Source: a virus (Duplodnaviria > Heunggongvirae > Uroviricota > Caudoviricetes). Taken from it: a stretch of 4,583 bases of DNA. The DNA is taken from the IMG/VR virus record IMGVR_UViG_2529292996_000007. One strand, given 5' to 3'. Of this stretch, positions 558-4,506 are shown one piece after another (the first letter of the stretch is position 1; every line of letters starts with the position of its first letter). The notes below the pieces were generated by a model that had not been told where the DNA came from, made no database searches, and saw only the letters and a program-made list of their open reading frames with translations. The position numbers were made by a program, and so were the translations under genes.

Positions 558-2065
558 TGGCAATTCTTGATGATGTGATTGGCGTTTTTTCACCTGGATG
601 GAAAGCGGCAAGGCTGCGTTCCCGTGCGGTGATCCAGGCTTATGAAGCCGTAAAAACGACGCGGACACACAAAGCCCGACGGGAGAACCGAACTGCCGAC
701 CAGCTAAGCCAGTACGGGGCCGTGTCGTTACGTGAGCAGGCCCGTTACCTTGATAACAACCACGATCTGGTTATTGGTGTATTTGACAAGCTGGAAGAAC
801 GGGTGGTGGGGAAAAACGGGATTATTGTCGAGCCACATCCGGTATTACGCAATGGGGCCATTGCCCGTGATCTGGCAGCGGAGATTCGCACCCGATGGAG
901 TGAATGGTCTGTCAGCCCGGAAGTCACCGGGCAGTTTACCCGTCCGATGCTGGAACGTCTGATGCTGCGTACCTGGCTGCGCGATGGTGAGGTGTTTGCC
1001 CAGATGGTTTCCGGGCGCATAAACAGCCTGACGCCTTCTGCCGGTGTTCATTTCTGGCTGGAGGCGCTCGAGCCGGACTTTATTCCCATGACCAGTGATG
1101 AGAGCAACAGGCTGAATCAGGGCGTGTTTGTTGATGACTGGGGGCGTCCCGAAAAATATCTGGTGTATAAAAGCCGTCCCGTATCCGGACGGCAGATGGA
1201 AACCAAAGAAGTGGATGCAGAGCGAATGCTGCATCTTAAATTTGTTCGCCGTCTGCACCAGATGCGCGGGACGTCTTTGTTGTCCGGTGTGCTGATCCGC
1301 CTCAGTGCCCTGAAAGATTATGAAGATTATGAGCTGACTGCAGCAAGGATCGCCGCTGCTCTGGGGATGTACATCCGCAAAGGCGACGGGCAGAGCTATG
1401 AACCGGATGGTAATGGCAGCAAGGATAAGGAACGCGAGCTTACCATTCAGCCAGGCATTATTTACGATGATCTGAAACCCGGCGAAGAAATCGGAATGGT
1501 GAAGTCGGATCGCCCCAATCCTAACCTTGAAACTTTTCGTAATGGTCAGTTGCGTGCCGTGGCGGCGGGCAGTCGTCTGAGTTTTTCCAGTACAGCGCGC
1601 AACTATAACGGCACTTACAGCGCCCAGCGTCAGGAGCTGGTTGAATCTACTGATGGCTACCTGATCCTGCAGGACTGGTTTATTGGTGCCGTCACCCGCC
1701 CGATGTATCGTGCATGGCTGAAACAGGCTGTGGCATCCGGTGTTATCAGGCTACCCCGCGATCTTGACCGTTCTTCACTGTATACCGCGGTGTATTCCGG
1801 ACCAGTGATGCCGTGGATTGACCCTGTTAAGGAGGCTGAGGCCTGGAAAATCCAGATTCGTGGTGGAGCGGCGACAGAATCAGACTGGGTACGTGCTGGT
1901 GGTCGTAATCCGGATGATGTCAAACGTCGGCGCAAGGCCGAAATTGATGAAAACCGCAAGCTGGATCTGGTATTTGATACCGATCCGGCCAGTGATAAAG
2001 GAGGCAGTAGTGCCGCAACGAAACGACAGGAGCCGCAGCACACCGACGACCAGTCCGAAGATTAA
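557..2065 (+). CDS. Portal protein (502 aa)
   Basis: Long ORF ending at TAA 2063-2065. ATG 557 is preceded by GAGG at 548-551 with a 5-nt spacer and overlaps the upstream stop (TGATG). Size and position after the gpW-like gene and before the protease/capsid gene fit a portal. The track's upstream start at 485 is a GTG with no properly spaced SD and would overlap the gpW-like gene by 73 nt. The C-terminal tail is acidic and polar (…KRQEPQHTDDQSED). Confidence 0.8.
   Translation: MAILDDVIGVFSPGWKAARLRSRAVIQAYEAVKTTRTHKARRENRTADQLSQYGAVSLREQARYLDNNHDLVIGVFDKLEERVVGKNGIIVEPHPVLRNGAIARDLAAEIRTRWSEWSVSPEVTGQFTRPMLERLMLRTWLRDGEVFAQMVSGRINSLTPSAGVHFWLEALEPDFIPMTSDESNRLNQGVFVDDWGRPEKYLVYKSRPVSGRQMETKEVDAERMLHLKFVRRLHQMRGTSLLSGVLIRLSALKDYEDYELTAARIAAALGMYIRKGDGQSYEPDGNGSKDKERELTIQPGIIYDDLKPGEEIGMVKSDRPNPNLETFRNGQLRAVAAGSRLSFSSTARNYNGTYSAQRQELVESTDGYLILQDWFIGAVTRPMYRAWLKQAVASGVIRLPRDLDRSSLYTAVYSGPVMPWIDPVKEAEAWKIQIRGGAATESDWVRAGGRNPDDVKRRRKAEIDENRKLDLVFDTDPASDKGGSSAATKRQEPQHTDDQSED
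1999..2004 (+). promoter_or_regulatory. Strong Shine-Dalgarno (AGGAGG, within AAAGGAGG 1997-2004) inside the portal 3' end, 5 nt upstream of in-frame GTG 2010 of the protease/capsid ORF
   Basis: AGGAGG at 1999-2004, spacer 2005-2009 (cagta), GTG at 2010-2012, which is in frame with the long ORF ending at 4037. Confidence 0.5.
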
Positions 2066-4037
2066 TTCCTGGTTCAGGATGCAGGCTGGTCACCAGAGTG
2101 ACGCGGATATTTATATTTATGACGAGATTGGTTTCTGGGGTGTTACAGCGAAGCAGTTTATCAGTGATCTGAATGCACTGGGCGATATCACCCACATTAA
2201 TCTCCATATCAATTCACCGGGTGGCGATGTCTTTGAAGGCATCGCCATTTTTAATGCACTGAAAACACATGGTGCGTCCATTACCGTTTATGTCGACGGT
2301 GTGGCGGCGTCAATGGCGTCGGTCATTGCGATGGTGGGAAACCCGGTCATTATGCCGGAAAACACCTTCATGATGATTCATAAACCATTTGGCTTTACGG
2401 GCGGTGATGCGGAGGACATGCGCACCTATGCCGACCTGCTCGATAAGGTTGAGGCGGTTCTGTTACCCGCTTATGCACAGAAAACCGGGAAAACCACCGA
2501 TGAAATTGCTGCCATGCTGGCGGATGAGACCTGGATGTCCGGTGCCGAATGTCTGGCACATGGATTTGCTGATCAGGTAACGCCAGCCGTTAAGGCAATG
2601 GCATGTATTCAGTCAAAACGTACAGAGGAATTTAAAAAGATGCCGGAATCCATTCGAAACATGATTACTCCGCCACGCAACAGTGCTCCACGCGTACAGG
2701 ATGATGAACCTGCAGCCTCCCGGACGCCAGTGCAGGCAGCAGCACCCGTGGTGGATGAAAACAGTATCCGTGCGCAGGTACTGGCAGAGCAAAAAGCGCG
2801 TGTAAACGGTATTAATGATCTGTTTGCCATGTTTGGCGGGCGTTATCAGACGCTGCAGGCTCAGTGTCTTGCCGATCCTGAGTGTTCGCTGGAGCAGGCC
2901 CGCGAAAAGCTGTTGAACGAGATGGGGCGCGAGTCCACGCCATCCAATAAAAATACACCGGCTCATATTTATGCTGGTAACGGTAATTTTGTGGGGGACG
3001 GGATTCGCCAGGCGCTGATGGCGCGTGCCGGATTTGAAAAAACCGAACGTGATAATGTCTACAACGGGATGACCCTGCGTGAATATGCCCGTATGTCACT
3101 GACTGAACGGGGTATTGGGGTTTCCGGTTATAACCCGATGCAGATGGTCGGTGCGGCGTTCACACACAGTACGTCTGACTTCGGTAATATTCTGCTGGAT
3201 GTTGCGAACAAAGCCATTCTGCAGGGCTGGGAAGATGCTCCTGAAACCTATGAACAATGGACGCGGAAAGGTCAGTTGTCTGATTTTAAAATTGCCCATC
3301 GTGTGGGTATGGGGGGCTTCAGTGCTCTGCGTCAGGTGCGTGAAGGGGCGGAATATAAATACGTCACCACCGGAGATAAACAGGCCACTATTGCACTGGC
3401 GACCTATGGCGAGCTGTTCAGTATCACCCGTCAGGCCATTATCAATGATGATCTGAATATGCTGACCGATGTCCCGATGAAACTGGGCCGTGCGGCGAAA
3501 TCCACTATTGCCGATCTGGTTTATGCCATTCTGACGTCTAACCCGAAAATCTCCACAGATAATGTAAGTCTGTTCGATAAAGCGAAACATGCAAACGTAC
3601 TGGAGAGCGCTGCAATGGACGTGGCATCGCTGGATAAAGCCCGCCAGTTGATGCGCGTTCAGAAAGAGGGGGAGCGTCATCTGAATATTCGTCCTGCGTT
3701 CGTACTGGTACCGACGGCGATGGAGTCTGTTGCTAACCAGGTCATTCGCTCCTCAAGTGTCAAGGGGGCTGACATTAACGCCGGTATTATTAACCCGGTG
3801 AAAGATTTTGCGACCGTTATTGCAGAGCCTCGTCTTGATGATAACAGCCAGACCACCTTCTACCTGGCTGCGTCAAAAGGCTCCGATACGATTGAAGTGG
3901 CTTATCTCAACGGTGTGGATACGCCATATATTGATCAGATGGAGGGCTTCAGTGTGGATGGCGTGACAACGAAAGTGCGTATTGACGCCGGTGTCGCGCC
4001 AGTTGATCACCGCGGTCTGGTGAAATGTACGGCGTAA
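2010..4037 (+). CDS. Fusion polyprotein: ClpP-like (S14) prohead serine protease, linker/scaffold-like segment and HK97-fold-type major capsid domain
   Basis: Continuous ORF ending at TAA 4035-4037. The N-terminal region carries ClpP-family motifs: GVAASMAS (candidate catalytic Ser codon 2310-2312), MMIHKP (candidate His codon 2379-2381) and a C-terminal ClpP-like motif ADETWMSGAECLAHGFADQV. The C-terminal roughly 360 aa (about 2950-4037) has the length and character of a phage major capsid protein. The start is ambiguous: GTG 2010 has a canonical SD but overlaps the portal by 56 nt, while ATG 2079 is the first ATG after the portal stop and has no SD. I report 2010; the alternative gives 2079..4037 (652 aa). 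Confidence 0.8.
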   Translation: MPQRNDRSRSTPTTSPKINSWFRMQAGHQSDADIYIYDEIGFWGVTAKQFISDLNALGDITHINLHINSPGGDVFEGIAIFNALKTHGASITVYVDGVAASMASVIAMVGNPVIMPENTFMMIHKPFGFTGGDAEDMRTYADLLDKVEAVLLPAYAQKTGKTTDEIAAMLADETWMSGAECLAHGFADQVTPAVKAMACIQSKRTEEFKKMPESIRNMITPPRNSAPRVQDDEPAASRTPVQAAAPVVDENSIRAQVLAEQKARVNGINDLFAMFGGRYQTLQAQCLADPECSLEQAREKLLNEMGRESTPSNKNTPAHIYAGNGNFVGDGIRQALMARAGFEKTERDNVYNGMTLREYARMSLTERGIGVSGYNPMQMVGAAFTHSTSDFGNILLDVANKAILQGWEDAPETYEQWTRKGQLSDFKIAHRVGMGGFSALRQVREGAEYKYVTTGDKQATIALATYGELFSITRQAIINDDLNMLTDVPMKLGRAAKSTIADLVYAILTSNPKISTDNVSLFDKAKHANVLESAAMDVASLDKARQLMRVQKEGERHLNIRPAFVLVPTAMESVANQVIRSSSVKGADINAGIINPVKDFATVIAEPRLDDNSQTTFYLAASKGSDTIEVAYLNGVDTPYIDQMEGFSVDGVTTKVRIDAGVAPVDHRGLVKCTA

Positions 4038-4060
4038 ACGTCGCAGACAACAACTCTGAT

Positions 4061-4080
4061 GGCCCGTAAGGGCTTTTTTT
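4061..4080 (+). terminator. Putative intrinsic terminator, copy 1 (short GC stem with GUAA tetraloop plus U7)
   Basis: ggccc-GTAA-gggc at 4061-4073 gives four G-C pairs plus a possible G-U closing pair around a GNRA-type tetraloop, followed by seven T at 4074-4080, directly after the capsid stop. The stem is short, so strength is uncertain. Confidence 0.45.
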
Positions 4081-4119
4081 GTACCGTACGGCGTAAACGT
4101 CGCAGACAACAACTCTGAT

Positions 4120-4139
4120 GGCCCGTAAGGGCTTTTTTT
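4120..4139 (+). terminator. Putative intrinsic terminator, copy 2 (identical to copy 1)
   Basis: Identical hairpin at 4120-4132 and T7 at 4133-4139 within the second repeat unit. Confidence 0.45.
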
Positions 4140-4150
4140 GTACCTGAAAT

Positions 4151-4169
4151 CAGCCCCTGAACGGGGCTG
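4151..4169 (+). other. Perfect 7-bp stem / 5-nt loop hairpin in the 5' leader of the downstream gene
   Basis: cagcccc (4151-4157), loop tgaac (4158-4162), ggggctg (4163-4169) form an exact inverted repeat. There is no T-run after it, so it is unlikely to be a terminator. It lies 4 nt upstream of the SD at 4173-4177. Confidence 0.4.
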
Positions 4170-4172
4170 TGC

Positions 4173-4177
4173 GGAGA
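4173..4177 (+). promoter_or_regulatory. Shine-Dalgarno (GGAGA) for the DUF2190-like gene
   Basis: GGAGA at 4173-4177, 5-nt spacer, ATG at 4183. Confidence 0.55.
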
Positions 4178-4182
4178 CAGTT

Positions 4183-4506
4183 ATGGCAAAGAATTTTGTA
4201 GAAGAAGGAAAAACGGTGGCGATTGTTGCCAGTGCAGCCATCAGCAGCGGAGACCTGGTGCAGGTGGGTGATGTTTTTGCGGTGGCGCTGACCGATATTC
4301 CACAGGGTGAAACAGGCGACGGCCTGACCGAAGGTGTGTTTATGCTGCCTAAGCTGAAAACGGATGACATGAAAACGGGTAAGAAGGTTTATCTGAAGTC
4401 CGGAAAAGTTCAGCTGACTAACAGCGGCTCTGATCCGCTGGTCGGGGTTGTCTGGGCAGATGCCGGAACCAGTGCAGAAGAAGTGCCGGTAAAACTCAAT
4501 GTCTGA
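4183..4506 (+). CDS. Small DUF2190-like phage head protein, putative capsid decoration protein (107 aa)
   Basis: ATG 4183 with SD; stop TGA 4504-4506. The track's longer ORF starts at TTG 4138, which lies inside the terminator repeat and has no SD. The protein has the Gly/Val-rich pattern I associate with the DUF2190 family (…GDLVQVGDVFAVAL…GVFMLPK…GKKVY…PLVGVVWADA…VPVKLNV), which is commonly found just downstream of major capsid genes. Family assignment is from memory, not a search. Confidence 0.7.
   Translation: MAKNFVEEGKTVAIVASAAISSGDLVQVGDVFAVALTDIPQGETGDGLTEGVFMLPKLKTDDMKTGKKVYLKSGKVQLTNSGSDPLVGVVWADAGTSAEEVPVKLNV

Follow-up and report, generated by a model that had tools for sequence, protein, structure and literature searches.

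The stretch of DNA analysed here, which we refer to as the window, is 4,583 nucleotides long and comprises the block of head genes from an E. coli prophage that is lambdoid and belongs to the mEp460/cdtI/Ayreon type, as judged from its open reading frames, from the annotation of E. coli and phage records that are 99-100% identical to it, and from Pfam. Its genes are arranged as follows.

to 348: large terminase gene, 3′ end
345-557: gpW-like gene
557-2065: portal gene
2079-4037, plus strand: ClpP-like prohead protease/major capsid protein fusion gene (identical-record annotation, 99.9%; Pfam)
4183-4506, plus strand: head-decoration gene (DUF2190/Phage_cement_2; record annotation and Pfam)

A protein identical to the protease/capsid fusion of the window matches Pfam families PF00574 and PF25209. 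The start assigned to this gene by PGAP is a GTG at 2010, with 2079 as the alternative start. The start of one further gene lies 3′ of the decoration gene, at the end of the window. The gene junctions prove more varied than the earlier note had stated in describing all of them, apart from the one downstream of the capsid gene, as overlaps of 1-4 nt. The terminase and gpW-like genes do overlap by 4 nt (ATGA), and the gpW-like and portal genes by 1 nt, but at the portal/capsid junction the choice of start decides between a 13-nt gap and a 56-nt overlap, and the decoration gene overlaps the next gene by 8 nt. The region is very common in E. coli, as a 601-nt query (window positions 3800-4400) matches approximately 1,990 places in 1,828 of 5,426 complete genomes, and a single genome carries up to 6 copies of the head module.

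Where the capsid gene gives way to the decoration gene, Tandem Repeats Finder (TRF) reports a repeat spanning positions 4027-4144 with a period of 59, 2.0 copies, 100% matches and a score of 236, and the same two 59-nt copies were recovered by a separate repeat search. Positions 4027-4085 are identical to 4086-4144, which bears out the perfect 59-bp tandem duplication previously proposed, and an exact doubling of this length cannot be a chance occurrence. The features of this interval and of the sequence that leads to the decoration gene are the following.

4021-4026, no strand: TGAAAT, immediately left of the unit pair, with an identical TGAAAT immediately right, at 4145-4150
4027-4085, plus strand: unit 1, with the native left flank, containing the true capsid stop codon and hairpin copy 1
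4062-4073, plus strand: hairpin copy 1, GCCC-GUAA-GGGC, with U7 at 4074-4080 (terminator scan and folding)
4084-4091, no strand: novel junction 4085/4086 between the units, creating the 8-bp palindrome CCGTACGG
4086-4144, plus strand: unit 2, with the native right flank, its hairpin sitting in a complete conserved module
4121-4132, plus strand: hairpin copy 2, GCCC-GUAA-GGGC, with U7 at 4133-4139 (terminator scan and folding)
4140-4150, plus strand: A/U-rich single-stranded spacer, GUACCUGAAAU in the window, consensus AUAyCUrAAAU (module alignment)
4151-4169, plus strand: hairpin 2 of the module, CAGCCCC-UGAAC-GGGGCUG, -13.2 kcal/mol, with covariation and no U-tract
4173-4176, plus strand: Shine-Dalgarno sequence GGAG of the decoration gene, invariant (module alignment)

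The capsid stop codon (TAA, 4035-4037) lies inside the duplication, as had been noted, and specifically within unit 1. From this stop codon to the next ATG (4183) the window has 145 nt, versus 86 nt in every relative, so the spacer length given in the earlier note is correct, but the spacer is conspicuous solely because of the extra 59 nt. The sequence at the junction between the units reads ...TTTTTTTGTACC / GTACGGCG..., in which the stroke marks the boundary. No base is common to the edges of the duplication (T4026 versus C4085 on one side, T4145 versus G4086 on the other), an absence of microhomology that would be out of the ordinary for an E. coli duplication of the slippage type and that counts against a real mutation. 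GTAC motifs do occur at the positions for which they were claimed, but they do not constitute a microhomology at the junction. The two GTACs within one unit are 54 nt apart rather than 59, and slippage between them would therefore yield a 54-nt repeat, so we reject this motif as the mediator of the duplication. The TGAAAT hexamers on the two flanks were likewise rejected, as slippage from one to the other predicts a 65-nt period and a central TGAAAT, and none is present there; their occurrence on both sides is probably coincidental, and the palindrome CCGTACGG may also be a coincidence. Neither of the hallmarks expected of slipped-strand events was found, as there is no short direct repeat at both edges and no copy-number variation among relatives, every relative examined having one copy.

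A GUAA-tetraloop hairpin followed by U7 is present in each unit, and a consensus terminator scan detects both. The hairpin core consists of four G-C pairs with a predicted stability of -6.7 kcal/mol, or -8.3 kcal/mol if an optional closing G.U pair is included, and the predicted probability of the stem in the nascent RNA is 0.88-0.97 for copy 1 and 0.70-0.97 for copy 2. These elements have a G+C-rich stem-loop that is short and weak for its kind, a U-tract directly 3′ of the stem in both copies, and a location on the sense strand just 3′ of the stop codon that is kept in relatives. Indeed, among 67 species-level loci, about 50 have a hairpin with a T-run no further than approximately 100 nt from the capsid stop codon (a simple scan gives 53 of 67, including a few weak ones), and in relatives from Pseudomonas, Shewanella and Halomonas the same position is occupied by ordinary terminator stems of 8-12 bp with T-runs, with no second hairpin. 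The hairpin-U7 element therefore looks like an intrinsic terminator, in agreement with the reading that had been offered for it, and we predict terminator activity on the basis of its sequence. A stem of four to five pairs is at the weak end for intrinsic terminators. The exact hairpin is annotated, in single copy, as a terminator in the phages Ayreon (MF807953, 6325-6359) and mEp460 (JQ182728/NC_019716), and thus the single-copy terminator is already known, as a predicted one, from public phage annotation.

Several other roles for this segment were considered and set aside. On the minus strand no T-run follows either hairpin, which argues against a terminator in that direction. The U7 tract was rejected as a site of -1 frameshifting or of slippage during transcription, as it lies 3′ of the stop codon and no conserved open reading frame crosses it. 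A 19-codon open reading frame that traverses the junction (ATG at 4058) has no Shine-Dalgarno sequence, and its ATG is not conserved.

Alignment of related loci reveals that the hairpin belongs to a fixed module common to approximately 20 genera of Enterobacterales and represented by 29 distinct sequences. Its elements occur in the order GCCC/GGGC hairpin (hairpin 1), T7-8, A/U-rich spacer, hairpin 2, GGAG and decoration-gene ATG. Among the 29 sequences the GCCC/GGGC stem of hairpin 1 is invariant and is capped by 12 different tetraloops. Hairpin 2 is GC-rich, with 6-10 pairs and predicted stabilities of -10 to -17 kcal/mol. Changes on both sides are observed at all 7 of its pairs, and 92.6% of the alignment cells are paired in the true register, whereas sliding the 3′ partners gives no more than 67%. 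Its covariation score of 0.32, versus 0.153 in shuffles, is reached by 0 of 500 shuffles, although this value was obtained from loci realigned to a covariance model built from the module itself, and such a fitted alignment leans towards the structure. Folds computed for each sequence independently show the same hairpin 2. When applied to the window, the covariance model gives a full match at 4114-4185 (68.5 bits) and a weak match at 4055-4099 (25.3 bits). Hence the hairpin of unit 2 resides in its native context, and the hairpin of unit 1 is a stray half-module. A scan against Rfam 15 revealed nothing in 4000-4200, and the sole Rfam match of the window, at 268-330, is to a snoRNA and is due to chance. 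The sequence of sRNA-17, a small RNA reported in an mEp460-like prophage (PMC7719688), does not occur in the window and was dismissed as a candidate.

We searched widely for relatives that share the doubling. In the best 40 and a further 60 evenly spread matches among the approximately 1,990 E. coli places, the 601-nt query spans 539-543 nt, which corresponds to one unit, the exception being one partial match of 61 nt that does not cover the repeat. The same query reveals one unit in 16 of 16 phage records. One copy is likewise present in all 80 of the IMG/VR loci that span the unit (two further loci begin downstream of it and fall outside this number), in 67 species-level relatives, and in the 20 contigs that encode an identical capsid protein among the matches listed; this protein occurs as a 652-aa form in 17 contigs, and the collection lists its 675-aa form in 1,171 blocks. 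Two hairpins are carried by none of the first 279 loci fetched. The comparison with related prophages that the earlier note had called for thus shows one unit wherever we have looked.

Searches directed at the junction itself gave the same picture. A 52-nt junction query, whose design keeps one-copy DNA from seeding a match, found none in E. coli genomes, phages or plasmids, and the exact junction 32-mer GGGCTTTTTTTGTACCGTACGGCGTAAACGTC was not found in IMG/VR, in one genome per GTDB species or in JGI metagenomes. A gapped pattern describing any two such hairpins 15-45 nt apart recovered the window itself, as a control, and no other case in either IMG/VR or the metagenomes of JGI. These negative results are not caused by low-complexity masking, since the 59-mer alone matches 1,904 places. 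If one unit is removed, an ungapped alignment is obtained between the window and a prophage of E. coli APEC E18005 (NZ_CP126946, 433306-437829), from which it differs by four synonymous substitutions, all at third-codon positions and all representing alleles common in other loci, and apart from the doubling the window accordingly has a natural appearance. By these sequence comparisons, the duplication is the sole structural peculiarity of an otherwise ordinary sequence.

These observations favour the suggestion of a very recent duplication or an assembly artefact, as no relative carries two copies. We give about an even chance to the extra copy being a real mutation, that is, a private, very young, non-homologous tandem duplication that would have arisen in one lineage and that bears no evidence of selection. 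Short tandem duplications do occur, and two observations count for a real event: the window is clean elsewhere, with nothing abnormal in the rest of its length, and the bases flanking the unit show no polymorphism in 80 close relatives, of which a branch point in an assembly graph would need some. A substantial possibility, if one that falls somewhat short of an even chance, is that a 59-base overlap, either between separate contigs or between the ends of one circular contig, was left untrimmed on concatenation, so that the real DNA has one unit. The copies are identical and number exactly 2.0, the junction is blunt with no common base, and no relative or collection searched contains a second case of the doubling, all of which is the pattern expected of a contig-overlap artefact. 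In addition, 59 is an odd number, a plausible k that resembles the k-mer length of a de Bruijn assembler, and we take it to be in the default k list of MEGAHIT. The presence of up to 6 copies of the head module per E. coli genome means that assemblies tend to break at this region. Among IMG/VR sequences, one (L002) begins 2 nt past the end of the unit, and another (L070) stops 6 nt before the ATG of the decoration gene. Arguing in the other direction, the 59-mer never occurs twice, in the style of a terminal repeat, among the matches listed, which come from at least 120 IMG/VR stretches; origin from the terminal repeat of a circular contig was accordingly set aside as a candidate, although this result is uninformative on the source of the window itself.

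The earlier note had also raised the possibility that a doubled copy strengthens polarity or stabilises the capsid mRNA. We consider it very improbable that the doubling is a selected adaptation of this kind, in which a tandem double terminator would confer stronger polarity or greater capsid-mRNA stability. In its favour, folding is predicted for both hairpins, selection clearly acts to keep a terminator at this position, and tandem terminators are used elsewhere, as in rrnB T1-T2. Nevertheless, there is no second case in roughly 2,300 related loci, no hairpin pair 15-45 nt apart exists in the collections scanned, and the copies are wholly undiverged. Moreover, 11 nt of coding sequence and a non-conserved 3′-untranslated region have been dragged along with the hairpin, which is what a random event would do. 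As a singleton that is absent from every relative examined, the doubling does not appear to be an evolved polarity device, and selected or other functions, taken together, are improbable.

We take the functional element to be the single conserved module between the capsid and head-decoration genes of the lambdoid head operon, and we infer, from its sequence and by analogy with known systems, that hairpin 1 would serve as a leaky terminator that stops part of the RNA polymerase not modified by antitermination, as a barrier to 3′ exonucleases, or as both. The expected outcome would be a capsid mRNA that is more abundant or more stable than the mRNA of the downstream genes. Hairpin 2 may cap or insulate the 5′ side of the ribosome-binding site of the decoration gene, protecting the 5′ side of its message, and the A/U-rich spacer is a possible processing site. 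True termination in a Q-antiterminated late operon may be small, and it is not obvious that a terminator ahead of the decoration gene would be optimal, since the decoration and capsid proteins are required in comparable quantities.

A further alternative holds that the hairpin-U7 element is not mainly a terminator, that the two-hairpin module is a site of RNase E or RNase III processing or of translational control of the decoration gene, and that the extra copy is a non-functional half-site. The architecture of the module, in which a hairpin is followed by a conserved A/U-rich single-stranded spacer and by a covarying hairpin that abuts the Shine-Dalgarno sequence, is consistent with such a role, as are the invariance of the GCCC/GGGC stem sequence, which goes beyond the needs of stability alone, and the antitermination-modified state of the polymerase that transcribes the late operon of lambdoid phages (PMC8022706). 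The relatives from Pseudomonas, Shewanella and Halomonas, which have long terminator hairpins with T-runs and lack the second hairpin, argue against it, as does the absence of an Rfam family, and we regard this alternative as having only the slightest probability. A broader proposal, which we consider unlikely, is that the module represents an undescribed intercistronic RNA element that would tune capsid versus decoration and tail expression through coupled attenuation, processing and 5′/3′ protection rather than simple termination, with the two-copy allele of the window being a real variant that perturbs the ratio.

Should the duplication be real, the window would contain two weak terminators of identical sequence, one following the other at a distance of 59 nt. 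For unmodified polymerase, the read-through that reaches the decoration and tail genes should drop to approximately the square of the value for one site, and Q-modified polymerase would be little affected. The biological weight of the doubling is small, as the terminator is already annotated in close phages and the extra copy is a one-off. Its value as a quality flag is more immediate: a perfect 59-bp duplication with no homology at the junction, absent in thousands of relatives, calls for a check of the reads before it is interpreted. The two-hairpin module provides a defined target for studying the stoichiometry of late-operon expression, and the one-copy and two-copy forms make up a ready-made pair of test constructs.

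Among known systems, the Tφ terminator that follows gene 10 of phage T7 offers a functional parallel, in that it is leaky and the capsid mRNA exceeds the downstream mRNA, as has been proven experimentally. Like the element described here, it is an intrinsic-type terminator located directly after the major capsid gene, but it acts on T7 RNA polymerase, has a long stem and an unrelated sequence, and is present in single copy. The rrnB T1-T2 arrangement consists of two different, conserved terminators in series. The window likewise has two predicted intrinsic terminators in series, but its copies are identical to each other and are found in one sequence alone. Lambdoid late operons are known to contain terminators at the end of the procapsid module. 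In phage L, which is P22-like, a predicted rho-independent terminator ends the procapsid module inside a single antiterminated late operon, for which the authors proposed partial termination or the blocking of non-antiterminated transcripts, calling the roles not known (PMC8022706); the head module and the sequence differ from those of the window. Beyond this statement on phage L, our search of the literature on capsid-gene terminators yielded nothing (PMC8022706).

The closest counterparts are mEp460 and Ayreon, in which the 601-nt region (window positions 3800-4400) is 99.5-99.7% identical and the identical hairpin with U7 lies between the capsid fusion and decoration genes. They differ from the window in having one copy rather than two, and the terminator annotation in these phages is itself a prediction. 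A second terminator is annotated in Ayreon and mEp460 after the major tail gene.

Across about 20 genera of the Enterobacterales, a bipartite RNA module, for which Rfam contains no family, occupies the interval from the stop codon of the capsid gene to the ATG of the decoration gene. In 5′ to 3′ order, it comprises an invariant GCCC-N4-GGGC hairpin followed by U7, a spacer of the form AUAyCUrAAAU, a second hairpin exhibiting covariation at seven of its seven base pairs, and the sequence GGAG. The positions of this module and of the other elements considered here, in the window, in homologous loci (L-numbers) and in the related phage Ayreon (MF807953), are as follows.

Window 4114-4185, and about 2410-2500 in L082-L123: bipartite RNA module
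L136, L137, L139, L141, L142 and L143, about 2415-2560: non-coding stretch of about 100 nt after the capsid gene
L142 3873-3918, minus strand: tRNA fragment
L001 6669-6709, corresponding to Ayreon 8742-8782: second annotated terminator, GCCCCGG-TTAT-CCGGGGC-T6

Relatives from Kluyvera, Trabulsiella, Yersinia, Pectobacterium and Moellerella, whose capsid is 53-54% identical, carry no decoration gene directly 3′ of the capsid gene. In these five genera, the capsid gene is followed by about 100 nt of conserved non-coding sequence (..GGTACTCCC..CCACGGGGCGG..CGCGGRAAACGGCTNGTTTTT..), which has no match in Rfam and may represent the end of a satellite-like element.

The second annotated terminator in L001 and Ayreon adjoins the 3′ end of the major tail protein gene, and thus the genes for both of the most abundant virion proteins precede a terminator.

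Identical TGAAAT hexamers reside on both sides of the duplicated pair (window 4021-4026 and 4145-4150). In the one-copy form, deletion between them would join the capsid and decoration proteins in frame through the linker SAPERGCAETV. Because conservation of the left hexamer does not extend to other genera, this flanking arrangement is probably coincidental.

Two homologous loci have ends within the capsid-decoration spacer. L002 (IMGVR_UViG_2537561709_000011) begins at the equivalent of window 4146, 2 nt past the end of the 59-nt unit, and L070 (IMGVR_UViG_2740892521_000003) terminates 6 nt upstream of the decoration gene ATG. This spacer is therefore a site where boundaries of contigs or proviruses cluster, which is the behaviour anticipated of a multi-copy prophage module.

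Annotations of the capsid fusion gene start (window 2010-2079) conflict: PGAP assigns GTG 2010, yielding 675 amino acids and a 56-nt overlap with the portal gene, and phage records assign ATG 2079, yielding 652 amino acids.
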